Program-made: the position numbers and the translations under genes
Source: a virus
Length of the DNA stretch: 64,000 nucleotides
Virus record (IMG/VR): IMGVR_UViG_3300044911_002386
Coordinates: 64,001-128,000 of that record
Strand: one strand, 5' to 3'
Notes under the pieces: generated by a model
Seen by the model: only the letters and a program-made list of their open reading frames with translations
Databases searched by the model: none
What the model was told of the DNA's origin: nothing
In this document: one piece after another, positions 20,990-64,000 of the stretch
Layout: each line of letters begins with the position of its first letter
Numbering within the stretch: the stretch's first letter is position 1

Positions 20990-21376
20990 TCAGGATGCGT
21001 TCTGCATAGCAGCGGAAGCCGCGGCTTGCAGCGTCAGAACAGCATTGGCAATCGCCGGCTGCTCTGCCGCCACGTCAGCGGCCCCCTTGAAAGCGGCCAC
21101 TTTCTCAACCGGGCCAGAAAGGCCCGCCGCGGCGAGGACGGCGTCGAGTCGCTGGTTAGCAGCCGACAGTCCCGAAACCTGCGCCGCAGCGGCCTTTTCT
21201 TGTTCCGCCGTGTAGAGCACATGTAACTTGTTCGCAATCGACCACATTTCAGAGGCCTCCTGCTCCGACCGCGGGGCAACCCCGTGGGCGGCAAGTTTCT
21301 CGAAGAAATACGGCGCAGCAAGTTCAGCCACAATCGTGGCATAAGCCTGCTCAGCCGCTTGTTTAATCTGATCCAT
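20990..21376 (-). CDS. Hypothetical head-associated protein (K-x-A motifs)
   Basis: ATG 21376 with AAGGAG RBS; IKQAA, EKAAA and EKVAA motifs. Confidence 0.75.
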   Translation of the reverse strand: MDQIKQAAEQAYATIVAELAAPYFFEKLAAHGVAPRSEQEASEMWSIANKLHVLYTAEQEKAAAAQVSGLSAANQRLDAVLAAAGLSGPVEKVAAFKGAADVAAEQPAIANAVLTLQAAASAAMQNAS

Positions 21377-21408
21377 CTCTGTGCTCCTTTGGTTAGTTTT
21401 TACACGAC

Positions 21409-22335
21409 TCACTTGAAGTCAACACGGGCCAGACCGTTCGTATGACCGAACGAACCACCCTGCGTGTTGTAGGCAAAGTACTCAAGCATGTAAGCCTCAC
21501 GACGGATGTACATCGTGGTGGGTTCCAGCTCGTAGTTCTTGCCGATAAACTTCGGCGAAGCGAACATGAACAGCGAATCGTCCGGAACGAGGTCGCGCTT
21601 GATCGTGACGATCCAGCGGCAGTTCAGGAAGTTGGTTTCAGCCCAGCCATTCTTGATGATGTCCTGGCTGAAATCGCCACCCATTTCGTCGCGGCCGAAC
21701 TTGAGAAGTTCCTTGATCGTGATGTTATTCACGAGGCAGGTCTCAACTTCAAAGTGCGACGGCGTACGGGGCATAACCTTGAGGGCGTCAACCAGCGTTT
21801 CGCGGGTGATGCCACCAGAGATTTCCTCGTACTGAACCGTTTCCGACATCGTGACTTCGGTGCCAGGCGTCGGGAGTACGGCCTTGAAAGCGGCAATAAA
21901 CTTCGAGTCTTCCTCGGCGAGCATGTCCTTGATCATGTTGTCGCTGAGCACCTGACGGATGTCGATGACATACGTACGGAGTTCGTCGACGTCCTTCACA
22001 GCACGGGGCGACACGATCCGGTCAAACATGACGCGGTAGCGCGGGCCACGGATGTAAAAGTTGATCGGGAGTGTCGCAAACGGAAGCGACACAGCCGCCG
22101 GGGAATCGGGCTCCTTGTCCACAACCTTGACGGGCTTGTCAGTGTCAACCTGACGGTCGAGCTCGTCGTTGGTGATGGTCAGCGGCGGCATAATCCGCCG
22201 GTAGAACCCGTCTTCACGCATCTTGGTGCGCGTGAAGTCGTTAACAGCATCAATGGCCTGCTTCTGCATGCCGGGGGTATCAAGCTGTTCAAACAGCGTC
22301 TCGTTGAGCAGTTGAACTTCTTGCTGAGTGGGCAT
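21409..22335 (-). CDS. Major capsid protein (HK97-fold, putative)
   Basis: 308 aa, GGAGG RBS, very strong codon bias. FTRTKMREDGFYRRIMPP...EEDSKF...GSFGHTNGLARVDF pattern. Order protease-scaffold-decoration-MCP. Confidence 0.85.
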   Translation of the reverse strand: MPTQQEVQLLNETLFEQLDTPGMQKQAIDAVNDFTRTKMREDGFYRRIMPPLTITNDELDRQVDTDKPVKVVDKEPDSPAAVSLPFATLPINFYIRGPRYRVMFDRIVSPRAVKDVDELRTYVIDIRQVLSDNMIKDMLAEEDSKFIAAFKAVLPTPGTEVTMSETVQYEEISGGITRETLVDALKVMPRTPSHFEVETCLVNNITIKELLKFGRDEMGGDFSQDIIKNGWAETNFLNCRWIVTIKRDLVPDDSLFMFASPKFIGKNYELEPTTMYIRREAYMLEYFAYNTQGGSFGHTNGLARVDFK

Positions 22336-22354
22336 CGTTTGGAACCTCCATGTT

Positions 22355-23020: not shown

Positions 23021-23446
23021 TCAGGCTGTGGGCGGATTCAAACCAAGGCCCGTGAACAACTTCACGTCAGAAGCCTTGAGGCGACCATCGCGGGCACCCA
23101 CATACCCGCTCGTCAGGCTGCCCGCAGGGTCATAACCGGCAGTCTTTGTAGCGACCGGCGTGCCGAGACGGGCCAACTCAGCGGCGTTTTTATGCGTCGC
23201 TAACTTGATGACCAGTTCCATTGTGCGAGCCGGGTCACTTAAGGCGGCGGCAAGCGCTTCCTTCTGGTGCGGCTCGATGCGCTCGTTGTCCACGCAAGCC
23301 TGAACGGCTTCGGGAATAAGACGGGCGACCTTTTCAGTTTGCTCGTCCCGCTCCTGCAGTACCGCAGCAGCCTTCGTCATCGCCGCATCGGAGTAACCGA
23401 TGTAGTCGATGATGTTTTGAACAAGCGCGTTATTGTTTTTCGACAT
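23021..23446 (-). CDS. Hypothetical head protein / scaffold-like
   Basis: 141 aa helical, GGAGG RBS; TKAA, EKVA and TKTAG motifs. Confidence 0.7.
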   Translation of the reverse strand: MSKNNNALVQNIIDYIGYSDAAMTKAAAVLQERDEQTEKVARLIPEAVQACVDNERIEPHQKEALAAALSDPARTMELVIKLATHKNAAELARLGTPVATKTAGYDPAGSLTSGYVGARDGRLKASDVKLFTGLGLNPPTA

Positions 23447-23465: not shown

Positions 23466-24854
23466 TCAACGGTTTACGAGTTCGATGACGTGCTGCTTCA
23501 TGATGTCCCGAAGTTGCCGAGACCGCTTGGTGCGGGCCTCTTTGACCTGGAACTTACCAGCACGTTTAAAATTCATTACAGCAGCACCAATGGACCGCAG
23601 TTCGCTGGCTCGCTTGGCAGCGGCCATCTTGGGTGCCATGCCAGCGGCTTCCGGCGGCATACCAGCGGCTTCCGGCGGCATACCAGCGGCTTCCGGCGGC
23701 ATTCCGCCTGCAGCACCACCGCCCTCGCCGCCAGCAATGGCCTCAAGCAGCGCTTCCGGCGGAATGCCGAGTTCTTCCAGCGCCATAGCCAGTTCTTGTA
23801 CAGCCTCGTCTTCCGAAGGGCCAGCACCTTCCATGCCGGCGCCTTCCATGCCAGCACCACCAGCCGCAGCCGGATCGCCACCCTCAGCACCGAGCATTTC
23901 TTCCAGGCCGGCCGGAGCCGCACCGGAACCAACGTCAGCCGGGGCACTGTGATCCTCACCTTCCGACGCTTCCTCTGTCGGGTCCGCGGCGGCCTGCTTT
24001 GAACTTAAAAAACCCATGAACAGGTCGGCCATTTCGTCAGCCTCGCGGAGAGTGTTCGCGCACACCTCGCGCACCGAAGCCTCGGCCGCGGCTTTGTCCA
24101 TCCCAAAGTGTGCGGCTAACTCATAGCCCGCCTTAAACGCAGCCGCTTTCTCGTCGCCAGCGTCGGACTTTTCTTCCTTCTCATCACCGGCGTCGGACTT
24201 CTCGTCGCTGTCTTCGCTGCCGGCTTCGGAACCGGCTTCGGCCTTGCCGCTGCGGAGCGCAGCGAGATCCGAGCCGTCGATCTTGCCGTTGTCATTAACG
24301 TCTAACTTTTTTTGGCCGCCTATTAGGTGGTCGTCAGACTTCTTTGTTAACTTGTCCGTGCCAAAGTTGATAAGGTTCGCGAGGATGTCGTTGCCGAGGT
24401 TACCGCAGTGATTGCGTGCTTCCTTGAACGAGGCCGACGAGTACTTCTCGCCGTCGTTGGTCTTGGCGGGATGCGATGTGCCCGGGTCATCCTTCGTGCC
24501 CTTGAAATCCTTTTCGGCAGCGGGATCTTCGCCGGTCGACTTGGCATTTGTATTGATGTTTAACTGCACTTCGTTCTGCCGACCCTCTTGCGACATTTCC
24601 GGAGTGTTGTCTACAGCTAACGCACCCTGCTGCTTCTTGATGTCGGTCTCGTACTCGGAAGCACGCGCACCGGTGTCAGCATTCTGCACACTGTTATCAA
24701 CGCTGGTCGTCGGGTGCGAAGAGGCGCCCTGATAGCCGCCCGGATCAGAAGGCGTGGGGCCAGCTACTTTTTCAGCAGCGGCTTTTGTGCTCTGCGAAAT
24801 TTCGTCAGCAAGAGCATTGAGTTGAGCGAAAAGGGAACGTTGCATCCGTGCCAT
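23466..24854 (-). CDS. Prohead scaffolding protein (putative)
   Basis: 462 aa acidic low-complexity protein directly after the protease; contains an EF-hand-like loop DVNDNGKIDGSD and GMPPEAA repeats. Confidence 0.6.
   Translation of the reverse strand: MARMQRSLFAQLNALADEISQSTKAAAEKVAGPTPSDPGGYQGASSHPTTSVDNSVQNADTGARASEYETDIKKQQGALAVDNTPEMSQEGRQNEVQLNINTNAKSTGEDPAAEKDFKGTKDDPGTSHPAKTNDGEKYSSASFKEARNHCGNLGNDILANLINFGTDKLTKKSDDHLIGGQKKLDVNDNGKIDGSDLAALRSGKAEAGSEAGSEDSDEKSDAGDEKEEKSDAGDEKAAAFKAGYELAAHFGMDKAAAEASVREVCANTLREADEMADLFMGFLSSKQAAADPTEEASEGEDHSAPADVGSGAAPAGLEEMLGAEGGDPAAAGGAGMEGAGMEGAGPSEDEAVQELAMALEELGIPPEALLEAIAGGEGGGAAGGMPPEAAGMPPEAAGMPPEAAGMAPKMAAAKRASELRSIGAAVMNFKRAGKFQVKEARTKRSRQLRDIMKQHVIELVNR
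23641..23702. repeat. 21-bp tandem repeat x3 (GMPPEAA)
   Basis: ccagcggcttccggcggcata repeated. Confidence 0.9.
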
Positions 24855-24897: not shown

Positions 24898-26352
24898 TTA
24901 CATGATGTAATTTTGCAGTACACAGTGGTTTGCTGTCAACAAGTTATTTCCGTATTTATCACAAATGGCGGCGAAAGCGGCAATCTTATACAACGCGTAA
25001 TGTTGCGCAAGTGCTGTTTCTGCGTTCCCAGTTGCTTGTTTCTCACACGGAATGTTATCTAACCGAGCGTTACGAATCGCGGCTAAGTATGCACGCTTTT
25101 CGATGTTACTCGGTAATACGCTGTGGGTTTGCGCTACTTTCTCTGCCCACACCCTAACAGCAGCCGGAGCCACACTCGAAGGGTAGTAAACATTATTCTC
25201 CAAAAGCGTCGCCATGTCTAGATCATTTGCAACTTTTGTAAAAATATTGGGCAGGGCTTTCGCAACAGCCCCGACGAGGTCCTCACTTGCTGTCTTTAAA
25301 GTCAGTGCTAAAAAGTCGCGCAGCGGCAGGATAACACCGGCGTCAGCCAGCCCACGCAACACGTCTGACATTTTAACAAATGAGCACGCACTTACATCAA
25401 TAGGCGGCTGTACTTCCGGCGATGAAGCCAGGGCAAGTTTGGTCCACTCAGCACTGTTCTGGGTGGCTTCGGCTTGGACAAGTAAGTTTAAAGCCTCTAA
25501 CTGTGCGTGAGCCCGCTTGCTTGAGTTACCATCTAAGTTAAATCCAATCGGTGCGGTGACGCCAAGGTGCTCAGCCAATTCAGCGCCAGAAAGAATGGCT
25601 GTACCAGCGGCTTTTTCAAGCCGGCCAGATACATACGCAATTCGGTCAGCCGGGCGAAACACGTGAGAAATGTCAAAAAACGCACACTTCGTATTGTCGG
25701 CGTGTAGCACGTGACCGTCCGCCAGCACCCGACCGATGTTGTGCTTTAAACCGCCCGCCTTGCAGTGCCCGCCGTTCTCTGGTGAGTCGCAATACTCAGC
25801 CCGGGTACGAGCCGTGTTGCCGCAAGAAGAGCATTTGTCGAAAGGAATTTTGCAGGCCATCGATACCGGGATCTCTTTCCCGTTGGCCAGTTTCTCAAGT
25901 TCTTTGTCAGCAATTAAACCGCCATTGCGATCGGCCGCTTCTTTTGTGCCATTTAACGCGCAGACAAGTTCAATTCGGTGCATGGGCTCGTGGTAGGCAC
26001 TGGCCTTCACGATGCCGAATGACTTGGCCGGATTCTTGTTGGCGTGGTCCCGATAGAACCTGGCTAACTTTTCAAACGTGTTGTGATCTTTACGGCATGT
26101 GTCTCGTGTAAAGCCGTCGCCGTTGCGGTTCGGGCCGTAGTCCTCTGTGGCACCAATCGCGATCATGTGCACAGGAACTTCATCTTTTGCAAACTTAATG
26201 TTTTCAAGTTTATGGGCAAACTCCGCACCGGCTCGTTTAACGAATGCCTGCTTGTCGGCACCGATGAGGCCGCGGCTTGAGATCTTAATAATCTCCGCGA
26301 CTGGCTCACTAAAGTCTTGAGCGTGCGGCTGAATAACTTTGATCATGCTCAT
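24898..26352 (-). CDS. Prohead maturation protease (HK97/U9-like serine protease)
   Basis: NRNGDGF...FYRDHAN (His)...IPVSMAC (Ser) followed by CSSCGN..C and FFDISHVFRPADRIA; first gene of the head operon. Confidence 0.75.
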   Translation of the reverse strand: MSMIKVIQPHAQDFSEPVAEIIKISSRGLIGADKQAFVKRAGAEFAHKLENIKFAKDEVPVHMIAIGATEDYGPNRNGDGFTRDTCRKDHNTFEKLARFYRDHANKNPAKSFGIVKASAYHEPMHRIELVCALNGTKEAADRNGGLIADKELEKLANGKEIPVSMACKIPFDKCSSCGNTARTRAEYCDSPENGGHCKAGGLKHNIGRVLADGHVLHADNTKCAFFDISHVFRPADRIAYVSGRLEKAAGTAILSGAELAEHLGVTAPIGFNLDGNSSKRAHAQLEALNLLVQAEATQNSAEWTKLALASSPEVQPPIDVSACSFVKMSDVLRGLADAGVILPLRDFLALTLKTASEDLVGAVAKALPNIFTKVANDLDMATLLENNVYYPSSVAPAAVRVWAEKVAQTHSVLPSNIEKRAYLAAIRNARLDNIPCEKQATGNAETALAQHYALYKIAAFAAICDKYGNNLLTANHCVLQNYIM

Positions 26353-26376: not shown

Positions 26377-27366
26377 TTATCGTGCATTTACGGCGCCACG
26401 GCTGCCGGCGTAACCAAAACGACTAGCCTGTTGGCGCGCTTGTTCTGCCGCAGTGTTTTGTATCCACGCTATCGTTTTTGCCATATCGCGGTCGTTGTTC
26501 AAATAAAACTCTTCCCCGCCCGGAAACTCACGAATCCTATTAATCATTTGTAGCAAGTTAGTTTTGTCTTGCGGGTTTGTCATCGCAATCGGCTGGCCGC
26601 TAGGTGTTTTCGTGTAGATATCTAAATCGTCTTTTGGCAATAAACCAGTCTCCCGCAGTTCAGCCATGCTCGTTGCCGGTTTTCCAGTTTTACGTTCATA
26701 CGACTCTAATAAACCACGAAAACGGTCTTGATACTGCGTCGTTCGCCCGGTTAATTTCTTATACCACGGCATTTTGCCGGTTTGCACCCAATTTAAAAAA
26801 TCACTCCCGCCGGCGTTTGGCGACACGCCGTCAGCTAACGGATGCCGAGACGGGCCCTGTTTGTATAAATCAGTTTCCATGTGGGGTTTAATAGCGTCTG
26901 GCCTGTAGCCCTTATACGGCACAACGCTTACTGTGCCGTCAGCGTTTGTTGTCAGCGCAACTTGCTCGGTCGGCTTATCGGCTACGCGCATTGGCGTCGT
27001 TTCTACTCGCTGTACGTCTTTTGGTTTGACAGCGGCAGGCGCAGCCGACGGTGTAATTTTAGCCGTCGGGGTAGTTGACGGCGTCGGGGCAGCGCTGTTA
27101 CCGCCGTTCATAAAGTGGGCGAGGCCAAGGCCGCCAAGGCCGCCGAGCGTGCCGTAATAAAGGGCGTTGCGTTTCTTATTGCGGCCCTGCGTCGCACCAA
27201 TGAGTGCGCCGATACCCGCCCCGCCAAGGCCGCCAAGTAAATAACGCCCGGCGTCACCACCGACGAACGCGGTTTTAATTTGCATTAAGTTTGATGGCAG
27301 TGTTTCGCCAGTAACGGCGCTGCGGGCTAACTGACCTGCCAATTTTTCAAAGTCGTTGTTGTTCAT
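26377..27366 (-). CDS. Glycine-zipper putative internal virion protein
   Basis: EKLA and IKTA motifs, then LLGGLGGAGIGALIGA...GTLGGLGGLGLA hydrophobic hairpin. Confidence 0.7.
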   Translation of the reverse strand: MNNNDFEKLAGQLARSAVTGETLPSNLMQIKTAFVGGDAGRYLLGGLGGAGIGALIGATQGRNKKRNALYYGTLGGLGGLGLAHFMNGGNSAAPTPSTTPTAKITPSAAPAAVKPKDVQRVETTPMRVADKPTEQVALTTNADGTVSVVPYKGYRPDAIKPHMETDLYKQGPSRHPLADGVSPNAGGSDFLNWVQTGKMPWYKKLTGRTTQYQDRFRGLLESYERKTGKPATSMAELRETGLLPKDDLDIYTKTPSGQPIAMTNPQDKTNLLQMINRIREFPGGEEFYLNNDRDMAKTIAWIQNTAAEQARQQASRFGYAGSRGAVNAR

Positions 27367-27369
27367 GTC

Positions 27370-28980
27370 TTACGCAAGTTCTTCTTGGAGTTTGCGGGCC
27401 GAAAGCATTGTTTGATCCCGCTCGGCTTTGAGTTTATCCATTTCAAGTAATTGTTTCGCGTCAAAATCGGCAAGTTGTCCGGCCTCTAAACGTTTCCGAA
27501 GCATGGCACGTAAGACAGCCGGGGACTGCACGACGTTTGGCGCCGCGTCGGCTACTTCATTAAACGCCAATGCTACTTCTTGAGGGCTATAACCAGAGAT
27601 GACGTCGTCATTAAGCATCAAGTCGTGAAGCGTGGCTTGAGCGCGAATATTTTTAAGCGTCAGTTCGTGGTCGGGCGAGGAGATCTCTTTCAACATCTTT
27701 AAACCAATGTCGCGCGGCTCTTTGTCTAAGCCAAGAATGCTTTTAGCCATCCCGGCTGGCGAGGCAGCACCAGCAAGACCAATTTGTTCACCAACAGTGT
27801 TGACTGGCCGGTTAGCACTCTCAAAAAACGTTTGTAAGTTTTTTTCGTAATTGCTGGCACCACCCTTGCCGCCACCGCCACCACCACGATTACCGCCGCC
27901 ACCGCCGCCACGGTTGCCCTGCGGCTTCTTCTCTTCCGGCTTTTCGGGCTTAGGAGATGGCTTTGCCGGCGGTGCAGGCGGTGCAGGCGGAGCAGGCGGG
28001 TTAATGCCGAATAATGTCGCCGCAAGACTCGGCGGTAATCCTGGCCCGGCAGATACAGGAAAATGCCCGCCACGCGGGCCTGCTGCTTGCTTTAAAGTTA
28101 CGCCGTTAGAGAAGTCTACCGGCGCCTGCAGCACCGAACCTGTAAGAAAAGTGGCTACTTTCTTATTACTAATTACTGGCGTCTTTTTTTTTAAGTCCGC
28201 GCTCGCTTTGACATATTCTTCCGTCAGGATAACAACATTTTGTACGCGGGCGTACAGGGGGTTATCGCCAAAGTGGTTGTTGTTCGTTGCCGCTTGCTTT
28301 TTAAACTGAGGATAAACTTCGGCCACCTTGTGCAGCACCGAAACACCCTCGTCGCCGAAACGTAAGCCAACCTGACGAACAGCGTCGGCGAACGACATGT
28401 TTCCCGGAGTGCGGAAATACTCAACTACGCCGTCAAGCGCCGCGGCGGCTTTAGAGTACGCAGCCGTAGCGATGCGGCGCCGCTCCTCGTCAGCCAACTG
28501 CTCGGCACGTTTGACGCTATAGGCCCGCTCAGCGGCGAATTGCTCGTCACGCGGATACGGCACATATGTCTTTGCCGGTAATGCCACTTGAGCCGCTGCG
28601 GCCTTCTCCTGCTCAGCCACGCGGCGAGCGAGCATGCCGGCAGGCGAAACGGCGTAGTCCGTAGATACAATTTCTTGCCGCACGATTTCTGCCGACGTTT
28701 TAACAGCCTTGGGGTACAGAGCATCTAAAACCGTGGGGGCGTCAGCCAGTTGGAAATCAGCCGACTTTTCAGTCGTGTTTTCGCCTTGTTCGCGTTGCTT
28801 GGTGGTGCGGCCTGTGTTGTACGCATGCACCATAAGGTTAATATGCCCCGCGGGAATATCGGCGGCGGCGGCACTCTTAATGATTGCAGCGTTTGGCGAT
28901 AGCCCTTCGTTGACTAATGCTGCAGCTTTTTCAATCGCAGCAATTAACTTTTGTTCGGCTTCTTTGCTCAATGTCTGCAT
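27370..28980 (-). CDS. Putative internal virion protein (536 aa)
   Basis: Long ORF coupled to its neighbours; many K-x-A/S motifs (EKAA, IKSA, EKSA, VKTS, KKQA, KKVA, LKQA); Pro/Gly linkers. Confidence 0.75.
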   Translation of the reverse strand: MQTLSKEAEQKLIAAIEKAAALVNEGLSPNAAIIKSAAAADIPAGHINLMVHAYNTGRTTKQREQGENTTEKSADFQLADAPTVLDALYPKAVKTSAEIVRQEIVSTDYAVSPAGMLARRVAEQEKAAAAQVALPAKTYVPYPRDEQFAAERAYSVKRAEQLADEERRRIATAAYSKAAAALDGVVEYFRTPGNMSFADAVRQVGLRFGDEGVSVLHKVAEVYPQFKKQAATNNNHFGDNPLYARVQNVVILTEEYVKASADLKKKTPVISNKKVATFLTGSVLQAPVDFSNGVTLKQAAGPRGGHFPVSAGPGLPPSLAATLFGINPPAPPAPPAPPAKPSPKPEKPEEKKPQGNRGGGGGGNRGGGGGGKGGASNYEKNLQTFFESANRPVNTVGEQIGLAGAASPAGMAKSILGLDKEPRDIGLKMLKEISSPDHELTLKNIRAQATLHDLMLNDDVISGYSPQEVALAFNEVADAAPNVVQSPAVLRAMLRKRLEAGQLADFDAKQLLEMDKLKAERDQTMLSARKLQEELA

Positions 28981-28982: not shown

Positions 28983-29912
28983 TTATTCTCCCGGGAATCG
29001 CAGATTTTCGATCAGGGGCTGATTTTCTAGTTTACCACCAGTCGCCACAATGATCATTTCGCTGTTGTTTAATTCTGCCGCGCCACTATCAAAGGGTACC
29101 ATTTTTATAGCTTCAGAATCCAGTTTCGTCCCAACGCGGAATGGCAGGGCCGTCAACATAGCCCCGATATTCTCCACAATGGATACCTGCGCTTTAGTAG
29201 CGTTTTCTGTCGTTCTTTCAATTTCAACATATTTGGCGAACGAGTCGATAAGCGGTAATTGTGTATGCGTGTTGGCCTGCACGGTAAGCGTCGCCAGTGC
29301 CGCCTTGTACTTCATGGCACTAATTGCAAAATCCTGGAAAAAGCCAGAGACGTTCTCAGGGTTTTGCGGGCGGCTGACCGGGCAAAATCTGTTAATGACG
29401 GCATCTAGCACCATCGGGCCGCCGTGATAACCCATTAACTTCCAGAGCAAGTCGTAGTGTCGTTCCTGCAATCCGCGAGTAACGGCATCACCCATCACGA
29501 CATTCACAACATAATCGGTGTGGGCCATCTTTTCGCGAACATCAAAAAATACGTTGATATACGCGTTAATAATCTCTGGCGTCGTGCCGACCTTAGCAGC
29601 AATCTCGGCGTCCGTTTCTCCTGCTAATACACGGGCTTCCACGGCCCACTTTGACGGTGCTTTATCCTCCACCCACAGTGAGTGGGCCCAGAACAATTCC
29701 GGGTCGCGGAGATGCAGGGCGTACAATGCTTGCGGCCTGCTGCCAGCTAACTCAAAATGCCGTTTCAGCCGGCTAGCACGGCGTACCCACTTAAAGCCTT
29801 CCGCACCGTCTAATTTGCGAGACGCCTTGGGCCCGCCGGCATCAATATTTACCGCCCGCAGCCACCGCCAACTAGGCGACCGTCGAGGGTTATCGCGAAG
29901 GGCGTTTAGCAT
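28983..29912 (-). CDS. Hypothetical protein (309 aa)
   Basis: Translationally coupled ORF; HTH-like segment DAEIAAKVGTTPEII. Confidence 0.75.
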   Translation of the reverse strand: MLNALRDNPRRSPSWRWLRAVNIDAGGPKASRKLDGAEGFKWVRRASRLKRHFELAGSRPQALYALHLRDPELFWAHSLWVEDKAPSKWAVEARVLAGETDAEIAAKVGTTPEIINAYINVFFDVREKMAHTDYVVNVVMGDAVTRGLQERHYDLLWKLMGYHGGPMVLDAVINRFCPVSRPQNPENVSGFFQDFAISAMKYKAALATLTVQANTHTQLPLIDSFAKYVEIERTTENATKAQVSIVENIGAMLTALPFRVGTKLDSEAIKMVPFDSGAAELNNSEMIIVATGGKLENQPLIENLRFPGE

Positions 29913-30305: not shown

Positions 30306-32711
30306 TTAAGAGTTGGCAACGGGACCTAAGTCGACGTCGCTGTTGGCTTCTTCTGGATACGGCTCGATTGTCTTTTGCTTCAGGAACAAGATGACGTCGC
30401 CAAGCATCTCAAATGCGTTACGCAGCGAATCTTCCAGTTCCGGCATGTCGGCCTTGCCATAACGATCGGCAAACCGGTCGCCATGCCAATAAAACATAAA
30501 CAAGATGCGCCCCAGTTTGTCGAGGCCCTTTGTCAGTTCACCCATGTAGCGATCTACCATGCCGTCGTCGCGTACAGTTCGCAACATGGAGCCAATCATC
30601 GCTGTGTCAAATACTTCGCGTTGACCGCTTTGAGCGGCGTCGATTACCGAGCGTAAATCTTTTTGATCTAACTCAGTGTTCGGGTTGTAAACGCTGCGAT
30701 CCGTCTGACTAGCAGCCATGCCCGACACAGGCATACCGACGTCAATACCGAGTTGTGTTGGAACGCTCGTGCCCATGATGCTTTCGCCGCCCATGACCGC
30801 GCCGGGATCACTCGGAGCGTTCGGGGCACTGTTGATCATCATCGGGCTGCCGTACGGCTCGGCATATTTTACGCGGCACTCAAACTTTCGTTTATCAGCC
30901 GCTTGTTTCAGAATGTCGCGGGCGGCTTCTTCTCGTAAACCGTGCTGCCGTACTAACGACACCAGTGCCTGCTTTTCAGACAGTTCTTTTTCAACGAGTT
31001 GTTTTTGCCCGCTGTGAATCTCTACAGCGTGACCGTTATTTGTCACAGTTAAAGACGATGTTTTTTGCATCAACTCCATCTGGGCGTCAAGCAGGTTGCC
31101 CGGCATCAGCGGCGGATCTTTGCTTTCGCCGCAACCGCATGCACCCTGCCCTTCAGCCGAATCGACGTCGTCTTCGCCCGGCTCGCACTTCAGCATCTTG
31201 AACCCTTCCGGCACAAAGATGTCGCCCATGCTGGCACGCAGCGACGAACCCTTTTTACCGTTTAAATGCAGCCGCACGCCGTCGCGGTACTTGTCGTAAT
31301 TAAGCGGGTCAGAGTAGCAACACGGAGAAATGCTGCCCTTGGGCGGAAACTTTGTGTAATCCTCGAGATGCACTTCGTACACCGTCGAGCCATTTGTTTC
31401 GCCATATTCGCGAAGGCTCCGAACCGGGGCGGTAGTGTCGCCGCGCTTGTTAAGCAGCATTACGCGCGAGCGACCGGACGGAAGGCTTTTGGCTTCCGGA
31501 AGACCGTCATACCATTTGTCAAACTCTTCGCCCTCTACGCGGGAAAGTGCAAAAACATGGTCAGCCCGTGTGTTAATCCAGTCGGCTTTACCGTCAATGC
31601 GAACGACCGTGACGAAGTTAGACCGCTTGGCGGCACCCATCGGGAATACGGCCACGTAGCAGCGTTCAATATTGCCCGGCTTGACGAGGATTTCGTACAG
31701 ACCGCTCTCGGTCGGATTAAACAGCCGCTTCTCGACTTGGATATGGTAGGGAATCGAAACGTTGTCGCGATCCCGCTTGTCGAGAATCAGCACGCCGTCC
31801 CGCAAAAGTTTTTCCTGGTCTTCTTCTGTGTGACCCGGCGGTAACTTAGTCTGCACCGTCGTATCGAGCGTAATGACTTCAAGCGACTTTTCAGCCGCTG
31901 GCGTTTTGGGAGCCTCAGACAACACGCTCGCCACTTTTGTGCGGCTTACGCGAGCCGACGCCTGTGCTACGGCCTCTTTGACGATATTTAAACCGTGGAA
32001 CGAGTCGATGGCCTCGGCGAGTTCGGGGGCTTTCTTGCAGCTGTTAACCAGCGTGCTTAACATTTGCATGCTGGCTTCTTTTAAGAACGCCGGCAGGTTG
32101 ATCGCACTGCCAAGTTCGGCAAAAGCCTGGGCGGTATTCATCGTGGCCGATTTCGCAAATGCCGGCATGGCCGCAGTCATCATCTCTTTGAGCGTGGGCT
32201 GCGCCGAGCCGAACTTTGACGGGCTGCGGGAAAGTTGCGTGAAGTCCGGCTGCCGTTGGCCAAGATTCGACAGATTTCGATCGACGCCGTTGCCAAGGAT
32301 GTTCGGCTTTCGATTGATTAAATAGTTGATCCAGTTTTCTTTGAGCGGTACGAACATATCCTGATTTTTGATGTACAGGAGTTCGTGCCCTTTCAAGTCG
32401 CCGTTTAAAAAGAATACCGGGGCGTAAAGCCACTGGGCACCGACTTTAAAAGCAAATACGCCAACGGCTTTTGTGTTCTCGCGGTTGCGGTCCAATAATT
32501 GGAAACCGACTTCGTGATCAAGCAATTTGGGCGCTGAGTCACGCAAGTAAGCGTGGGCCAGGTTAGAAAACGCCTGTTCAAAAGAAGTGTCATCGCCACG
32601 GCCGCCAATTTCGGCCTGTTTGACTTGGCTGCGGTCGTGAGACCTAACTACCTTCAGCCAGTGCTGCCACGACGCTTCTTTTTTGCTTTTGTTGTACACG
32701 GCCACCTCCAT
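30306..32711 (-). CDS. Large putative virion protein (801 aa)
   Basis: Long ORF after the RNAP genes; K-x-A/S motifs (VKQAE, AKSA, LKEAS, TKVAS, QKTSS, VKYAE). May start at a GTG a few codons in (GGAGG). Confidence 0.75.
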   Translation of the reverse strand: MEVAVYNKSKKEASWQHWLKVVRSHDRSQVKQAEIGGRGDDTSFEQAFSNLAHAYLRDSAPKLLDHEVGFQLLDRNRENTKAVGVFAFKVGAQWLYAPVFFLNGDLKGHELLYIKNQDMFVPLKENWINYLINRKPNILGNGVDRNLSNLGQRQPDFTQLSRSPSKFGSAQPTLKEMMTAAMPAFAKSATMNTAQAFAELGSAINLPAFLKEASMQMLSTLVNSCKKAPELAEAIDSFHGLNIVKEAVAQASARVSRTKVASVLSEAPKTPAAEKSLEVITLDTTVQTKLPPGHTEEDQEKLLRDGVLILDKRDRDNVSIPYHIQVEKRLFNPTESGLYEILVKPGNIERCYVAVFPMGAAKRSNFVTVVRIDGKADWINTRADHVFALSRVEGEEFDKWYDGLPEAKSLPSGRSRVMLLNKRGDTTAPVRSLREYGETNGSTVYEVHLEDYTKFPPKGSISPCCYSDPLNYDKYRDGVRLHLNGKKGSSLRASMGDIFVPEGFKMLKCEPGEDDVDSAEGQGACGCGESKDPPLMPGNLLDAQMELMQKTSSLTVTNNGHAVEIHSGQKQLVEKELSEKQALVSLVRQHGLREEAARDILKQAADKRKFECRVKYAEPYGSPMMINSAPNAPSDPGAVMGGESIMGTSVPTQLGIDVGMPVSGMAASQTDRSVYNPNTELDQKDLRSVIDAAQSGQREVFDTAMIGSMLRTVRDDGMVDRYMGELTKGLDKLGRILFMFYWHGDRFADRYGKADMPELEDSLRNAFEMLGDVILFLKQKTIEPYPEEANSDVDLGPVANS

Positions 32712-34665: not shown

Positions 34666-34901
34666 GGTGTCCAGATAATATCTTGAAGCGGCTTGGGTTT
34701 AAATTCTGTTATTTTTACAGTCTTAGTAATGCCGAGAGATCGAAGCACGGACTGGAAGTCGGGGTCATTTACCGTGGAAAACACAATTGACTCGGTCAGT
34801 TGTGTTGCCACGATAATTGGATTACCCATGTCGTCTTCAATTACGACGCTATGGGCCGGCGTGTCCGCTGGTTGCAGGTTAAATTGCGTTTTAACCCGCA
34901 T
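34662..34901 (-). CDS. Hypothetical protein (79 aa) between RNAP genes
   Basis: GGAG RBS; stop overlaps the beta'-C start (GTGA). Confidence 0.7.
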   Translation of the reverse strand: MRVKTQFNLQPADTPAHSVVIEDDMGNPIIVATQLTESIVFSTVNDPDFQSVLRSLGITKTVKITEFKPKPLQDIIWTP

Positions 34902-44802: not shown

Positions 44803-44828
44803 AGGTTACCTCCAAAACAGTTATTCTA

Positions 44829-47504: not shown

Positions 47505-47746
47505 GTTAACACTCGAAATAACTGCACGGCAAAAGCCAGAATTACGACAATCCAGGCAATCAGACCGCTGAGAGCTAAAAAAACAATAAACGACGTCAGA
47601 GTCAATGCCGGGAACAATTTCTGAATAGGTATTTTACGAAACAGCAGCAATGCACGCATCCATTGCGGCGACGGCTTGTCCGGCGTTACGTCTGGTGTCG
47701 GCGAAGGTTTCGGCTTTGGCTGCCAGGGCCAGTTTATTTTGCTCAT
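47501..47746 (-). CDS. Small membrane protein
   Basis: Pro-rich N-terminus, long hydrophobic C-terminus; coupled to neighbours. Confidence 0.65.
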   Translation of the reverse strand: MSKINWPWQPKPKPSPTPDVTPDKPSPQWMRALLLFRKIPIQKLFPALTLTSFIVFLALSGLIAWIVVILAFAVQLFRVLT

Positions 47747-56710: not shown

Positions 56711-58537
56711 TTACCTTACCGGTGTGGGTACTTTTGTTTTTACCGGCGTGACGCTTGCTACGCTGTTCGCCGGGGCCGTTGATTGCACAGGTTGTGGCTT
56801 AATGTTTGGCTGCAGCGGCGCAGGTGGCAAATAACCGTGATGCGCCCCAACCATAGATTGAAACGGGTTCATTTTTTGCCCCGGCCGCACTGTACCTTTT
56901 CGGGTGTACAGGTTGTACAACTGCTGATCAGTGCTTTTTGGATTAAAGTGAATTCCGTGCTGCTTAAACGCGGCTTCGGCGTACGGGCGATCGAACGCCG
57001 TTTGGCTGAATTGTGATACTGGTTGTGCCGCCTTCTTCTCAGTCTTTTTTTTCTTGCTCTTACTTCCAGCCGGGCGGCACGAATTATTGCTATACGGCTT
57101 CTTCCCTGGAACCGGCTCGTAACCTTCCCAACACCGTGCGGCTTTTAAAGCAGCGTGTTTCAGTACAATTTTTTGTGCGATGTTCATAGAGGCACGTGTT
57201 TCCTTCCCTTCTGTTGGCGCGAAAAATCCTCGTTCAGCCAGTTCAGCGTGCATGGCTGCGTCAGCGGCGGCATCAGTGTCGACGCCGAAAGCATTGCCCA
57301 GTGCCATGCCCCAGCTACCTTTGCCGCCGCTTCTCGCTTCTTGCAGTCGTGCGTCGCGTTCTTTTTGTGCGGCTTGCAATGCTTGGTTGTACAAATAGCC
57401 TTGCTGCCCCGTCTCGTCATACTGTTGCTGAAGGCGTGCGAATAACGCCGCGGCTTCTTCTCGGGTCTTGGGCGCGTATTCGCCGTGCATGCCCATTAAA
57501 TAACTATTGGCAAGTTCTGGGTTGGTAGCGTGCAGTTGCCGCAACTGCTCAAACTTCGCCCGTTCAGCGTCGAGCATCCGTTGACCAACAGCCGCACCCT
57601 GGCCTTGTGGTGCCGCCTTAATAGCATCTTGAATTTTTTGCTTTACAGCCGCGTCCGCACCGGGGGCAAACATACTTGAGTCCCGGGCTTCTTCAGGAAT
57701 AGCGCCGAAAAAATTAGCAGCGTCGCCCAGCATGCGGCCCATACCAGCCTGTGTGTTTTCACCAAGCATGCCCATGGCACCGGCACCGACACCAAGAGCG
57801 CCGATGCCAAGACCGCCTAAGATCCCCATCAGCCCGTCACCCGATAAAAGACTGATTAATGCCGCAGGCACGCCGACCATAAACGCGGCCTGACCTGTCG
57901 GACCTAACCCGTCCCACATTCCCATGGCCTGGCCGTACCATGTCGGGTCTTGTGTTTTCGTAGGATCTCCGCCGGCCTGATCTGTAATAAAGTTATCGCG
58001 GGCAGGTGCGGCGGCTTCGGTGTCGCCTTGCATGACACGGCTCGCCGCATCTAACGTCTCGGGTGTGGCGGTTGCTTTAACTTGTGCTGTCACATTCGGT
58101 ACTAATTGTTTTTCAATTTCCGCTTTGGCTTCTGGTGTTTTAGCCGCAGAAAGCGTCGCCTGAGCGTGCTCGATTAACTTCGGCATCTTGTCATTAGCCG
58201 GAGACGTTTGCGGGGCTTGATTAGCCGGCTGTGTCGGGGCAGGCGTTGGTGGTGCCTGCGGCGGCTTCATAACGTTCGGTACGGGTGCCGCGGGCGCTGG
58301 TGCAGGTGCTGGTGCTGGGGCAGGCACAGGCGGCATTGGTGCTGGTGCTGGGGCAGGCACAGGCGGCATTGGTGCTGGTGCCGGCGCGGGTGCCGCGGGA
58401 GGTAAACTCGCGGCGTTATTTCCAGCACCTGCCGGCGGGGCACCTAATGGTTTGATCGGTTGTGTACCGGCAGTCGGTTGAACTACCGGCTCGGCATACT
58501 TCTCAAGACCGCGACTAAGAATCTGCTTAATCTTCAT
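56711..58537 (-). CDS. Putative internal virion protein with Pro-rich linker, glycine zipper and CWxGY motif
   Basis: EKYA, LKHA, LKAA and KKAA motifs; ILGGLGIGALGVGAG; CWEGYEPVPGKKPYSNNSCRP. Confidence 0.75.
   Translation of the reverse strand: MKIKQILSRGLEKYAEPVVQPTAGTQPIKPLGAPPAGAGNNAASLPPAAPAPAPAPMPPVPAPAPAPMPPVPAPAPAPAPAPAAPVPNVMKPPQAPPTPAPTQPANQAPQTSPANDKMPKLIEHAQATLSAAKTPEAKAEIEKQLVPNVTAQVKATATPETLDAASRVMQGDTEAAAPARDNFITDQAGGDPTKTQDPTWYGQAMGMWDGLGPTGQAAFMVGVPAALISLLSGDGLMGILGGLGIGALGVGAGAMGMLGENTQAGMGRMLGDAANFFGAIPEEARDSSMFAPGADAAVKQKIQDAIKAAPQGQGAAVGQRMLDAERAKFEQLRQLHATNPELANSYLMGMHGEYAPKTREEAAALFARLQQQYDETGQQGYLYNQALQAAQKERDARLQEARSGGKGSWGMALGNAFGVDTDAAADAAMHAELAERGFFAPTEGKETRASMNIAQKIVLKHAALKAARCWEGYEPVPGKKPYSNNSCRPAGSKSKKKKTEKKAAQPVSQFSQTAFDRPYAEAAFKQHGIHFNPKSTDQQLYNLYTRKGTVRPGQKMNPFQSMVGAHHGYLPPAPLQPNIKPQPVQSTAPANSVASVTPVKTKVPTPVR
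58305..58381. repeat. 33-bp tandem repeat x2.3 (APAPMPPVPAP)
   Basis: ggtgctggtgctggggcaggcacaggcggcatt repeated. Confidence 0.85.
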
Positions 58538-58928: not shown

Positions 58929-59136
58929 GAGTGCACTCCTCTTGGGTGTTCTGGACTTTTGACATATACGCTTGTCGTGCCGGGGCCGTCTCTTCGACAA
59001 GTTTTTTCCAGCCTGCTACCGCCGGCCGACATTCACCGCCGTCGCAGCACGTCTCGACGATGATGTGGCAAAACGGACAGACGTGTTTTGAGCGAATCTC
59101 GACTAATGCGGATTCACATGCGGGGCAAAGTGCCAT
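58921..59136 (-). CDS. Small Zn-ribbon protein
   Basis: CPAC...CPFC...TCCDG; coupled at both ends. Confidence 0.65.
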   Translation of the reverse strand: MALCPACESALVEIRSKHVCPFCHIIVETCCDGGECRPAVAGWKKLVEETAPARQAYMSKVQNTQEECTRG

Positions 59137-59762
59137 TACAGTTTAGCCTGTGCAAGAACTGAAGATGCCGGGACAGCCGACGCTATGTTTTTAACAACCT
59201 CTGTCGGTCGCGGCAATGTCGGATACAAGCCAGACGTCCATCCGCTCGGGGCGCCCGTGACTGCGTTCATAGACGGCGGTTTCATACCAACCGCGCCCCA
59301 GTTCGGGCCTTTAATTCTGTCAAAGTTTCCCGTGCCCGCCGCATATAAATCATGGGCTGCGTCTCCCGGGCCGTAACCAACTCGCCGCAGAGCCGGCTCG
59401 ACGCGCGACGAGTATGTGTGTGCGGCGTTTTGAGCCATGGCCGGCAAACGTTGCATTAGGTTTTGCCCCGCGGGTGTTTGCGAGGCTATGACGCCGCCAG
59501 TACCCGCAGTCGCCGCCGTACCGGTGCCCATGCCAGCAATCGTCGGGGCCGCAGCAACACCACCGGCCGCAGCACCTGCTGCCGCTCCAATTCCCATCGC
59601 GGCTTGGCCGGCCCGCATTAAACCCTTTTCACCGCGTTCGTAATTGCGCTGTTTTGTAAACGGGTTATACCAGCGGTCTAAGACATTACCGTAAGACCGC
59701 AAAAAACTCGGCTCGGCAGCCAGTTTTTCGCCGAGGGCACGGCCAAAAGAAAAAGCCTGCAT
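59136..59762 (-). CDS. Glycine-zipper putative internal virion protein (paralog A)
   Basis: MQAFSFGRALGEKLAA leader; shares a ~55-aa block with 59812..60627. Confidence 0.75.
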   Translation of the reverse strand: MQAFSFGRALGEKLAAEPSFLRSYGNVLDRWYNPFTKQRNYERGEKGLMRAGQAAMGIGAAAGAAAGGVAAAPTIAGMGTGTAATAGTGGVIASQTPAGQNLMQRLPAMAQNAAHTYSSRVEPALRRVGYGPGDAAHDLYAAGTGNFDRIKGPNWGAVGMKPPSMNAVTGAPSGWTSGLYPTLPRPTEVVKNIASAVPASSVLAQAKL

Positions 59763-59811: not shown

Positions 59812-60627
59812 CTAGTGCACACCCGCATGCTCAACGCCACCGTGCCCGTGTCCGCCGCCTACAAAGTTATGCAGTGTGTGGTGTAAGCCGTGCGCCCCTT
59901 CATGCATACCTTCGTACGGCAGCGTAACGGAGTGCGGCAACAGCCCCATTAAATTACCAGACGTGTTCACCGGGTTCATGTGTTTTGCGATACCCGTGTT
60001 GGGGTCCAAGGCTTGAGCAAAAGGATGGTGCTCTATCGTCTCATGAAACTCGCGTGCCGAGTGCGGCAATTTTTTCCATAGTGTGTTCTTCAGATCATTG
60101 ACCCGCATCGCCCCGTCAGTCGCAAATCGGTTAAAAGAGTTTGCCGCACTTGAAGCCGCGTTCGCCATCGTCGGGAACATTCGCTGTGCCGTGGGACTTT
60201 GTGTCGCAGCAGCACCGCCGGCCCCTGCACCGGCTACGGTGCCTGCCGCAGCGGCATTACCGGCAAAATACGCCGGCAGGCTGCTAACTGGCGTGGCGGC
60301 CAACGTGGGCGCGGCGGCAGCGACACCACCGGCCGCAGCCCCAGCTGCAGCACCAATACCCATAGCAGCCTGACCGGCCCGCATTAAACCTTTTTCGCCG
60401 CGCTCGTAATTACGCTGTTTTGTAAACGGGTTGTACCAGCGGTCTAAAACATTGCCGTAGGACTGCATAAAACTAGGGTTCGTGCTAGCCGACGGTTTAG
60501 AACCCATTGGCTTGGGGCTCATTGGATTAGGGCCTTGAAGAGGCTTAGAGCCGCTGGTAATTAATCCGCCGGCTGGGCCAGCGGCTACTTTTTCTGCTAC
60601 AAACCGCCCAAACGAAAATGCATTCAT
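59812..60627 (-). CDS. Glycine-zipper putative internal virion protein (paralog B), His-rich tail
   Basis: MNAFSFGRFVAEKVAA leader; shared block; C-terminus HEGAHGLHHTLH...HGHGGVEHAGVH. Confidence 0.75.
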   Translation of the reverse strand: MNAFSFGRFVAEKVAAGPAGGLITSGSKPLQGPNPMSPKPMGSKPSASTNPSFMQSYGNVLDRWYNPFTKQRNYERGEKGLMRAGQAAMGIGAAAGAAAGGVAAAAPTLAATPVSSLPAYFAGNAAAAGTVAGAGAGGAAATQSPTAQRMFPTMANAASSAANSFNRFATDGAMRVNDLKNTLWKKLPHSAREFHETIEHHPFAQALDPNTGIAKHMNPVNTSGNLMGLLPHSVTLPYEGMHEGAHGLHHTLHNFVGGGHGHGGVEHAGVH

Positions 60628-61256: not shown

Positions 61257-61606
61257 TATTTCAAGGCTTGCGTAAAGTGCTGCTCGTAGGCTGAATAAAT
61301 TTCAGCGTACGCCACACCCCACGCCGCATCATGAGATAACTTGTTGAACTGCTCGTCAGTCGTGGCGGAATCCAGCCGATGATTCCAAGCCCGTGCGTGG
61401 GCCCATTCGTGAACCAGCACGTCCATGGCTTTGTTTTCATCCAATCGAGAGTCGATCTGGATATGAAACTGTTTGCCCGTCTTCCAGCACCGACCCTCAA
61501 GCCGCGACGGAATTCGCAGGCGCCGGACTGAGACAGGGAAGCCGGCCGCAAACTTGGTCTTGAGCAGCCGCAACAATGCGTGATAATTCTTGTACCGTGC
61601 CGCCAT
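61256..61606 (-). CDS. HExxH zincin-like metallopeptidase
   Basis: VLVHEWAHA...H...WG; ATG 61606 with GGGAGG RBS. Confidence 0.75.
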   Translation of the reverse strand: MAARYKNYHALLRLLKTKFAAGFPVSVRRLRIPSRLEGRCWKTGKQFHIQIDSRLDENKAMDVLVHEWAHARAWNHRLDSATTDEQFNKLSHDAAWGVAYAEIYSAYEQHFTQALK

Positions 61607-61662
61607 ACCGCAGTCCTCCCTGACTGACGCTGTAGGCGACATCCATGCCGCCGGAGCGTTAA

Positions 61663-64000
61663 TTATAACTGGGAGGGCGTCGCTTGTCGGCCTGCCTTTT
61701 GGGCGGCGGCTTTTTGCTGTAAAAATGGGATGTTAATTTTGCTCAAATCTGGCTGAAGGTCTTTTAATGCTGGCAACGACCAGGACTCTTCATCCTCCGT
61801 GCCGCCCGACTCATTGTTTTCTGGCTTTGTCACTGGTTTACGGGTCGCCCGGCGGAGCACGCGCTTTTTCGTCTTTTTGACCTTCCCTGCCGCCGGTTTC
61901 CGTTTTCGACGGACCACCTTCTTCACGGCTTCTTCCTCGGCGGTCTGGTTGTTCATGGCACCGAGCACCCGCTGATACAGTTTTTTACCCAGTGCATTGC
62001 CGCCGTAAATACCCAAGGCGGGCAAGCCAGCATGTAAAAGCAAGTTGGCAAGACCCGGATCTTCAATTCTGTTATCGAACTTAGATATCAATTTACGTGC
62101 GTGGCCGGCCGCGGTGTTGCCGCCAAAAAATCCAAGGCCGGCGCCGGTGCCCGCCGCGAAGTTTTCTGGATTCTTGGTCAAACCGCCATAAGCAGCCCCA
62201 AGCAGGGCCGACGCGCCGAGTGCCCGAGAACCCTGCACAAGTGGATTCTTCGTGACAGCGGCTTGGTCTTTAATATTGCTGAATGTGGGTACGCCGCCGA
62301 TGACGCTGTTGTGAATATAGTTGATATACCCAGGCACGCCTTCATACACGACGTGCGGCAACGAGTCTTGAAAAAACGTTTTAGTTTGAAAACGCAATTT
62401 ATCGGCCGTCGTAGCGTTGGGGTGTTCTTTCGCATACCGGGCTACCTGCATGCTTAGGCTCGGCCAGTTGTCCTCGTGAAAAATCCAGTTCTTGCCGTGC
62501 CGATGAAAGTGCATGCCGGTATACGGATGCCGTAACGTGCGGAATTGCGTCTGCCCGCGCTCTGGCACGGCGACATACGACGGCAAAAACCCAAGTGCTT
62601 TCAAATCTTTTTCAGCAAAAGACGACGCTGGTAAAAAACTTCGCGGCAACGAGCCGATCATGTCAGAGGAAATATCTGGTGTTTTGCGGTGCTTCATTAA
62701 GGAGTTTAATAGCGTTCGGCGCGTGGCCTCTATCTGTGCAGCACGTACTGGAGGCCGCGGGACTTCTGTCGCATACGCCTTAAACACGCTATCTAAATCA
62801 CTTCGGGACGGTTTAATATCTCGGCTATTCAGTCGTTGCGGTAATTTTGATAGCCAGCCTGCAGCGCCTCGGGCAGCAGTTGCTGTTCCCCGGGCGGCGT
62901 CGCCCATTGTGTTCTTTGCGTCGCCGAACGCCTCCATGGCGTCAGCCGCTTTCTCGGCAAACCACGTAGCAACGCCGGCAACGGGATCAATGTAATTTGA
63001 GTTTTTCACGCTACCCTCTTCGCGCAGGATCTTGCGGAAGACTTCGTTCAGGCGTTCTTTATCAGCAGTTAAATGCTCTAACACTTCATCACCTGTGCGT
63101 TCGCGTTGGTAACCCATCAGTTTACCCAACCACGACGGATCTTCAGAACTAGAGATATACCGCTGCACGGCGACGTTCTTCAGTTCTTCGGGCAAGTCTT
63201 GATGGCTGTCAAATCGTAAACCCCGGCCCTTGGCTTGTTGGCTGCGAGACTCGTGCCAGTGCGGGTCTAACAGCTGTATTAAACTCGTGCCCTTGGTGGA
63301 GATACCCTCGGCTGCGGCTGGGCCTAACAGCAATGCCCGCAGTTTGCCCTCGTTGTAATCTTTGAGGGCCTGCTGGCGTTGCTTTACCGGAATGCTACCG
63401 TGGAAAATACCGTGCGGAATCTTGGCTTTCTCTAACGCCGAACTGTATGGCTTCAGGCCAGAGTCAATAAAGTTGGAATAAATGATGGCTTTTTTACGGG
63501 GGTCTGAGTCCAGCACGCCTTGCAGGTTTTTCATGGCCGTCTGTAACTTGGACGATTGCCCGAACGCGCGGCCTGGATCTTTGTCATATCGAAATGGCTG
63601 CGTAGACAACGAGACTTGGCGAAGGCCCGTGAGAAAACTATTTAACTTGGCCAATTCATCGCGGGACATGGGAAACTCTTTGTCGAGTTTCCAGAGAAAG
63701 CCCGGCGGGATCTTCGTACGAATGGCTTTCTGAATCTTTTGCTGGTCGGGCGACAGGGGCACGCGAATGACTTCTTCATTCACGTTGACGCCTTCTGGAG
63801 TCTTACTGGGCTGATAATCAATCTTGCCCCGTAGCAAACCCCGTAACTGGTCTTCGTTCTTGACAACTCCTCGCTCACCAGGCGCCACACCGCGAAACCA
63901 ATTGACCACGCCGGGGTTCACACTCTCGTAGTCAATAAAACGCTTCTCAAAGTCTTCGGGCGTAATGTTCTTGTTGTGCAGCATGCCCAGCAAGTTAGCC
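61663..64000 (-). CDS. SNF2/SF2 helicase-like protein with C-terminal extra modules (5' partial)
   Basis: HELICc motifs KAIIYSNF, LLGPAAAEGIS.KG, DPHW....QQA.GRGLRFDSH; then VKNS/EKAA linkers, an unknown domain and a glycine zipper. Frame is open to the window edge. Confidence 0.85.
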   Translation of the reverse strand, partial: ANLLGMLHNKNITPEDFEKRFIDYESVNPGVVNWFRGVAPGERGVVKNEDQLRGLLRGKIDYQPSKTPEGVNVNEEVIRVPLSPDQQKIQKAIRTKIPPGFLWKLDKEFPMSRDELAKLNSFLTGLRQVSLSTQPFRYDKDPGRAFGQSSKLQTAMKNLQGVLDSDPRKKAIIYSNFIDSGLKPYSSALEKAKIPHGIFHGSIPVKQRQQALKDYNEGKLRALLLGPAAAEGISTKGTSLIQLLDPHWHESRSQQAKGRGLRFDSHQDLPEELKNVAVQRYISSSEDPSWLGKLMGYQRERTGDEVLEHLTADKERLNEVFRKILREEGSVKNSNYIDPVAGVATWFAEKAADAMEAFGDAKNTMGDAARGTATAARGAAGWLSKLPQRLNSRDIKPSRSDLDSVFKAYATEVPRPPVRAAQIEATRRTLLNSLMKHRKTPDISSDMIGSLPRSFLPASSFAEKDLKALGFLPSYVAVPERGQTQFRTLRHPYTGMHFHRHGKNWIFHEDNWPSLSMQVARYAKEHPNATTADKLRFQTKTFFQDSLPHVVYEGVPGYINYIHNSVIGGVPTFSNIKDQAAVTKNPLVQGSRALGASALLGAAYGGLTKNPENFAAGTGAGLGFFGGNTAAGHARKLISKFDNRIEDPGLANLLLHAGLPALGIYGGNALGKKLYQRVLGAMNNQTAEEEAVKKVVRRKRKPAAGKVKKTKKRVLRRATRKPVTKPENNESGGTEDEESWSLPALKDLQPDLSKINIPFLQQKAAAQKAGRQATPSQL

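Follow-up and report, generated by a model that had tools for sequence, protein, structure and literature searches.

This study concerns a 64,000-nucleotide stretch of viral DNA, which covers bases 64001-128000 of a phage contig of 167,811 bp (IMG/VR record IMGVR_UViG_3300044911_002386), and a short motif, Lys-x-Ala (K-x-A), which recurs in the products of its head genes beside a gene for a predicted prohead serine protease. The whole stretch is called the window, and positions are window positions unless otherwise stated. Nearly all window genes lie on the minus strand, and they form a tail module, a head module, two genes of a multi-subunit RNA polymerase (RNAP) and a variable accessory region. 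The nearest cultured relatives are Salmonella phage Arash and Vibrio phages D69, D148 and D181, followed by Bacillus phage G and the cluster C mycobacteriophages (here Catera); there are also dozens of uncultured relatives, each about 200 kb. The protease gene (24898..26352) stands in the head module upstream of the genes of the probable scaffold (23466..24854) and the major capsid protein (21409..22335), all on the minus strand. A sequence-only reading of this DNA had proposed K-x-A/S as a genome-wide signature by which a large cargo set is labelled for packaging, cleavage by this protease and injection. As described below, the K-x-A signal in internal head-building proteins of this phage and its cultured relatives is beyond chance, while K-x-A as a genome-wide label is overstated; the motif is probably the recognition site of the protease.

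Is the motif more frequent than composition alone would give? All 1,600 residue pairs at gaps of 0-3 were counted and compared with the expectation under within-protein shuffling. For the 19 genes of the head module (20651-41697), K-x-A ranked first among the 1,600 pairs, with 89 observed against 52.1 expected (P=2.1e-6), so the proposed enrichment over a composition-matched null was borne out in the head proteins, and the motif examples quoted for it are all present in the named open reading frames (ORFs). The serine form was not: K-x-S gave 26 against 26.2 expected in the same genes, R-x-A 27 against 34.9, and K-A and K-x-x-A were flat. The preference for Ala or Ser falls instead on the residue after the Ala, where a small residue follows directly at 44-62% of sites, and in its extended form the consensus reads hydrophobic-[E/T/V]-K-x-A-[S/A]. 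The hydrophobic residue at -2 is found at 91% of Arash sites and 80% of D69 sites, and at 35-40% of sites here and in phage G.

Tail genes (37 against 44.9 expected), fibre genes (12 against 15) and all other genes (104 against 104.7) showed no excess of K-x-A, in agreement with the view that tail and metabolic genes lack the pattern. There was none either in the upstream window genes at 41699-64000 taken in bulk (40 against 48), and a genome-wide signature is thus not upheld. Without the polymerase genes the head module has 74 sites against 37.9 expected, and the polymerase genes alone have 15 against 14.2, no enrichment. For position within the protein, K-x-A occurs in the first 45 residues of 14 of the 19 head proteins (6.1 expected, P<0.001), of 14 of the 37 accessory-region proteins (9.6 expected, P=0.054), of one of 24 tail proteins and of none of 10 fibre proteins; these counts are slightly affected by a simple gene caller that mis-started some ORFs, such as 28983..29912. 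An N-terminal position of the motif is thus enriched in the head proteins and falls short of significance for the accessory set. The densest carrier of the genome lies outside the window, a plus-strand protein of 389 residues (genome 37840-39009; L173:4841-6010) with 13 of its 20 lysines in K-x-A. Among its orthologues the count is 249 of 385 lysines against 59 expected, and it has weak similarity to Arash virion protein gp242 and to D69 gp296.

Does the scan recover a known cleavage site, and does the signal recur in other genomes? For the head proteins of T4, the same scan put I-x-E first, which is the known gp21 site, and K-x-A was not prominent there (rank 42) or in the heads of SPN3US (rank 256). 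Position-equivalent head genes of Vibrio D69 again gave K-x-A as rank 1 (68 against 38 expected), the head genes of Arash gave 65 against 39 and those of phage G 27 against 15, and the head proteins of Catera carry a looser K/R-x-A. The tail genes of relatives showed no excess (4 against 10 in D69, 32 against 37 in Arash). In orthologue alignments, where the counts are not phylogenetically independent, the sites persist as islands within diverged regions: K409 of the scaffold is kept in 95% of orthologues at a local identity of 26%, K297 of the head protein 27370..28980 (28084-28092) in 96% at 13%, and K183 of the low-complexity protein 34891..35535 in 96% at 33%. Confinement of the motif to probable internal head proteins, with conservation in orthologues, agrees with what a cleavage by the head protease had implied.

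The protease has 484 residues and holds 16 K-x-A against 4.9 expected. A structure model of residues 1-260 (predicted local distance difference test, pLDDT, 88) was compared with known proteases by VIA-align, giving Z 11.1 for the varicella-zoster virus (VZV) protease (1vzv; root-mean-square deviation 2.7, 115 residues aligned) and Z 10.2 for T4 gp21 (5jbl; 2.7, 128 aligned), while unrelated folds reached Z<=5.9. The top Foldseek matches belong to the same families but at E>0.05, and the language-model neighbours are Peptidase_S77, S80 and S78 at a similarity of 0.90-0.91. By sequence, Pfam gave no family at E<=0.001, including Peptidase_S77 (PF03420), and a profile search against PDB sequences gave no match. 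Thus 24898..26352 is predicted from its model to have the assemblin/T4 gp21-type fold, over residues of about 55-248, which supports the sequence-only reading in taking it for the head protease, and by its sequence and its motif it stands outside the T4 gp21 family (S77) proper. Three residues are invariant in 124 homologues: His103 (26044..26046), predicted as catalytic from the fold; Ser164 (25861..25863), the predicted nucleophile; and Asp227 (25672..25674), the candidate third residue of the triad, which is Glu in phage G. Two K-x-A sites bound the catalytic domain. K39-R-A41 (26230..26238) precedes it and is near-invariant, with Lys in 122 of the 124; K247-A-A249 (25606..25614) stands directly after it like a release site and is matched in Arash, phage G and Catera. 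Homologous proteases of 30-40% identity are found in the cultured relatives (Arash gp222, Vibrio D69/D148/D181, phage G gp19 and Catera gp94), and the family is large, with some 2,000 clusters at E<=1e-10. For phage G gp19 the homology is clear (hhalign 99%), and its published annotation is head maturation protease (PMC12484599). Just past the catalytic Ser there are invariant cysteines (C172, C174/177, C188 and the C197 region; 25762-25839), whose pattern in the alignment suggests a zinc-binding insertion that T4 gp21 does not have. Inteins also occur at three positions among the homologues (P0141, P0149, P0154, P0155, P0161, P0176, P0191 and others), most commonly right after a Ser-Met-Ala/Ser motif, three residues downstream of S164.

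Around the protease, the head genes differ in their load of sites. The major capsid protein, with 28-30% identity to Arash gp226 and 26% to phage G gp27, has a single K-x-A at K25 (22255-22263), and the Arash and D69 capsid proteins also have one near the N-terminus. The probable scaffold, so named from position and composition, has 10 sites, of which 8 are conserved in at least 95% of orthologues. Pfam and PHROGs gave no name for protease, capsid or scaffold. The motif-dense core protein 23021..23446 and the small head or core protein 20990..21376 have family ratios of observed to expected of 3.15 and 2.45, and the ratio is 2.36 for the head protein 30306..32711, a homologue of Arash virion gp218. 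The motif-dense 27370..28980 is weakly related to Arash virion gp220. Two sites, K17 and K183, are conserved in 34891..35535, and the variable glycine-zipper protein 39929..40951, weakly related to Arash virion gp221, has partly conserved sites and no bulk excess (all on the minus strand). For the neighbouring head-region genes 19550, 20651, 22393, 28983 and 29912 the family ratio is below 1, and gene 28983 matches Arash gp219, a protein undetected in Arash virions. The densest carriers look like scaffold or core proteins destined to be cut up, and not like injected cargo.

What then reads the motif? By computation, K-x-A is enriched, conserved and limited to proteins that are probably internal to the head, and the protease has the expected fold with an invariant His, Ser and Asp. 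Together these results lead us to consider it likely that the prohead serine protease 24898..26352 recognises K-x-A. By analogy with T4, the scaffold and core proteins and some accessory proteins would assemble inside the procapsid. The protease would then trim itself on either side of its catalytic domain, cut the motif-dense core proteins into fragments, remove about 27 residues from the capsid protein and the leaders from a subset of accessory proteins, and split modular polyproteins. We take it to be a real specificity, and a probably undescribed one, within the known mechanism of prohead proteolysis.

There is a further question of where the cut would fall. Herpesvirus assemblins have Ala at P1 and a small residue at P1'. 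K-x-A|[S/A], in which P3 and P1 are fixed, P2 varies freely and P1' is small, has the same pattern as assemblin sites and as the A-x-E|S of SPN3US (PMC10052503), and a cut after Ala appears more likely than one after Lys. The one experimental hint found comes from phage G, whose capsid protein of 282 residues has 255 in its mature form by N-terminal sequencing (PMC5646251). The cut thus falls after Ala27, and the computed mass of 28.17 kDa matches the reported 28.2. This cut, by whichever enzyme, favours Ala at P1 for the family and gives no confirmation of Lys at P3.

Several observations weigh against K-x-A as the protease site. The phage G capsid cut reads V-A-L-A|Q in a protein without any K-x-A, with R-V-A two residues earlier. 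The conserved K95, K137 and K154 of the protease sit inside its catalytic domain, and there are some K-x-A in RNAP, so that not every site can be a productive cut. The scan missed A-x-E in SPN3US (rank 160), and the method is validated on one of two controls. Mass spectrometry (MS) of Arash detected motif-dense proteins at high reported coverage, although these values look unreliable (100% from 2 peptides) and were judged too noisy for mapping cuts. A protease-peptide complex prediction scored 0.19 and is counted neither for nor against. No report of cleavage at K-x-A in any phage and no paper on K-x-A specificity were found in the literature, and a 2020 paper on phage G structure and virion MS, which was outside the survey, may hold a note on processing. 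The Arash paper mentions neither protease nor cleavage, and the phage G papers examined name gp19 or give the mature capsid length, with no motif.

How far does the motif extend beyond the head-building proteins? The two RNAP genes (32779-34665 and 35552-39925, minus strand) serve as an internal negative result. They encode beta fused to the N-terminal part of beta-prime (1457 residues) and a separate part of 628 residues, a split shared with Arash (gp206/gp216) and D69. Their families have K-x-A ratios of 1.01 and 0.87, and no K-x-A leader is conserved among about 30 orthologues examined for each, though Arash gp206 does begin with one. In Arash the homologues rank with the most abundant proteins of the virion (PMC10585845), from which a virion location would follow for the subunits here. 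With no enrichment and no conserved leader in them, the idea of K-x-A as the label of the whole cargo set is not supported.

In some accessory proteins K-x-A does close leaders and join modules. The protein encoded just upstream of the protease (26377..27366, minus strand) begins with a conserved leader of about 27-30 residues ending in K-x-A (K31, 27268-27276); a hydrophobic segment rich in glycine comes next, and then a payload that varies. All 17 of the 17 family members from relatives have the leader closed by K-x-A, while their payloads belong to several unrelated clusters. Two paralogues, 59136..59762 and 59812..60627 (minus strand), share an F-x-F-G leader closed by K13-L-A (59718-59726) and K13-V-A (60583-60591), and five further BLAST families in relatives have an F/Y-x-F-G leader closed by K-x-A at 13-18. 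The variable protein 56711..58537 (minus strand) has a site in its leader, K13 (58493-58501), which 64% of homologues retain at a local identity of 9%. Among 227 families of relatives without a homologue here, the first 45 residues contained [FY]-x-x-G and then K-x-A in 9 cases, where 1.4 were expected, and K-x-A-[AS] in 19, where 8.2 were expected. Ten leader-bearing proteins have glycine-rich hydrophobic segments, an association with P=0.07. The AF-x-x-G[FYR] element said to be shared by several leaders is present, but in only three families of this genome and in unrelated membrane proteins; in the scaffold it is internal (AFKAGY, residue 239; 24123-24140), and in the leader-helix protein 41305..41697 (minus strand; element at 41659-41676) AFRLGF is followed by R-C-A and not by a near K-x-A, with K-x-A at 32/37 and then a glycine zipper. 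An AF-x-F-G element like that of the 59136 leader also occurs at the C-terminus of L174:11404-12012 (genome 135403-136011).

At domain junctions, where the motif had also been placed, the claim stands for one family. The minus-strand gene 47743..49590 encodes a modular polyprotein with a 2H phosphoesterase, a P-loop kinase, a DUF5661-like module and others, and has K-x-A at the junctions K37, K190, K379, K442 and K515. The members of its family are cassette polyproteins that vary in length, and 47 of their 64 mosaic junctions have a K-x-A no more than 12 residues away, where 13.0 were expected; at these junctions K-x-S and R-x-A are raised as well, to a lesser degree. Other accessory families had K-x-A at 9 of 63 junctions against 13.5 expected. 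The 2H phosphoesterase (Pfam 2H-SAK) forms the first module and, if packaged and released, could act as a counter-defence nuclease. The 1151-residue protein whose 3' part is 61663..64000 (minus strand, start beyond the window) has a SNF2-like helicase domain; its residues 232-690 match the stand-alone Arash virion helicase gp217 and are flanked by K226-T-A and K723-A-A (62944-62952).

The rest of the window may be described briefly. The tail module includes the sheath protein (10047..13217), homologous to Arash gp236. An actin-like protein (51090-52124) matches Pfam Volactin at E 2e-61 and is highly conserved, in more than 200 viral contigs, and a ferritin-like protein lies at 53162-53638. Further proteases are a papain-like one recognised by eye (42537) and a matrixin with a peptidoglycan-binding domain (44829), both within 42537-45650, and a trypsin-like one outside the window (L174:5374-6255). 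A profile search and tblastn found no portal gene in the 167.8-kb contig, which may be incomplete, the relatives being about 200 kb, or may have a highly diverged portal.

Could the signal come from composition, or from another reader of the motif? Scaffold-like proteins are rich in Ala and Lys, and the head group was drawn with the previously proposed region in mind. However, the null preserves the composition of each protein, K-A, K-x-x-A and R-x-A are not enriched, an Ala-rich tail-region protein of 1290 residues is not significant (15 against 10.9), independent genomes replicate K-x-A while T4 and SPN3US heads do not show it, and the out-of-window family lies far above its expectation (249 against 59); an artefact of Ala/Lys-rich helical proteins is largely refuted by these tests, and we give it next to no chance. 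Trypsins often cut after Lys, and the genome does encode proteases of the trypsin and M10 families. The trypsin-, matrixin- and papain-like enzymes have no tblastn match in the complete genome of Arash, which keeps the motif, and they are therefore unable to explain a shared motif; it is found in phages that infect Salmonella, Vibrio and Bacillus/Lysinibacillus and accompanies the 24898 family, so that one of these enzymes or a host protease is a very improbable reader. HK97-type proteases cut after Lys, and one may ask whether the motif is cut in this manner (hydrophobic-x-K|x-A) or is an uncut binding or assembly signal like a scaffold docking helix. The strongly conserved -2 hydrophobic residue of Arash and D69 would equally fit a T4-like arrangement of P3 hydrophobic and P1 Lys, and for many sites a helix is probable, the residue in the middle being hydrophobic. 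But the Ala is fixed with a small residue next to it, the P1|P1' pattern of assemblins and SPN3US, the phage G capsid is cleaved after Ala, and sites bound the protease's own catalytic domain, which makes docking or a Lys cut a distinctly unlikely explanation.

The wider proposal, in which K-x-A and an AF-x-x-G leader form a general label sending a large, genome-wide cargo set to the head for cleavage and injection, has more in its favour: the leader arrangement is enriched in the 227 independent families, seven BLAST families share the F/Y-x-F-G leader, the leader encoded just upstream of the protease is retained over changing payloads, and glycine-rich hydrophobic segments tend to accompany leaders. 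Nevertheless the upstream genes have no bulk excess, the leader test in the accessory region gave P=0.054, the RNAP subunits are unlabelled though their Arash homologues are top virion proteins, junctions are enriched in one family only, and AF-x-x-G is rare and in the scaffold internal. In SPN3US, too, most head proteins are uncleaved (PMC10052503). On balance we regard this general label as rather unlikely; what survives of cargo labelling is the shared leaders on unrelated payloads. A narrower version, with a leader-tagged subset of about 8-12 proteins, is plausible and compatible with K-x-A as the protease site. The hallmark of T4-type targeting, a shared short leader ending in a cleavage site on unrelated proteins, is seen for such a subset and does not extend to all internal proteins, the RNAP subunits being without it. 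A role of the leader as a packaging tag is plausible from these sequences. It is a tentative suggestion, to which we give somewhat less than even weight, that a K-x-A-specific prohead protease and a portable F/Y-x-F-G...K-x-A leader form a capsid-loading tag, by which swappable modules (2H phosphoesterase, kinase, helicase and membrane-inserting peptides) would be packed as polyproteins, cut in the head and injected as effectors.

Prohead proteolysis is a known principle, but in T4, phiKZ and SPN3US, where the protease has been characterised, cleavage follows Glu. If the protease-site explanation is true, a Lys-x-Ala rule would give the specificity of a large and widespread protease family including phage G, Arash and the cluster C mycobacteriophages, and in genomes that are mostly unannotated the sequence could be used to predict internal head proteins and the boundaries of mature domains. 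A leader that serves as a packaging tag would make this a second capsid-targeting system, next to the one of T4. The T4 gp21 system (PDB 5jbl, Peptidase_S77) resembles the present one in fold, in the His-Ser-acid order, in a protease gene upstream of scaffold and capsid genes, and in having many sites in core proteins, one near the capsid N-terminus and short leaders on internal proteins (PMC5694885). Unlike gp21, the protease here has no Pfam match at sequence level, a Cys-rich insertion after the Ser and a C-terminal tail of 235 residues; its motif is Lys-x-Ala and not x-x-Glu as in the I/L-x-E sites of T4, the ten leading pairs of the head module here do not include I/L-x-E, and polyprotein substrates are predicted. 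The herpesvirus assemblins (VZV 1vzv, human cytomegalovirus, Kaposi's sarcoma-associated herpesvirus) give the best fold match and share a probable P1 Ala with small P1', and the site right after the catalytic domain resembles their release site. They differ in having Val/Leu rather than Lys at P3 and His rather than the candidate Asp/Glu as third triad residue, and the context here is a bacteriophage. Compared with phiKZ gp175 and SPN3US gp245 (MEROPS S80, A-x-E), the motif is different, the leaders are shorter, the capsid is of the HK97/phage G type and the RNAP is split differently. It is in Arash, D69/D148/D181, phage G and Catera that a homologous protease occurs together with the same head-protein motif, in Catera as K/R-x-A.

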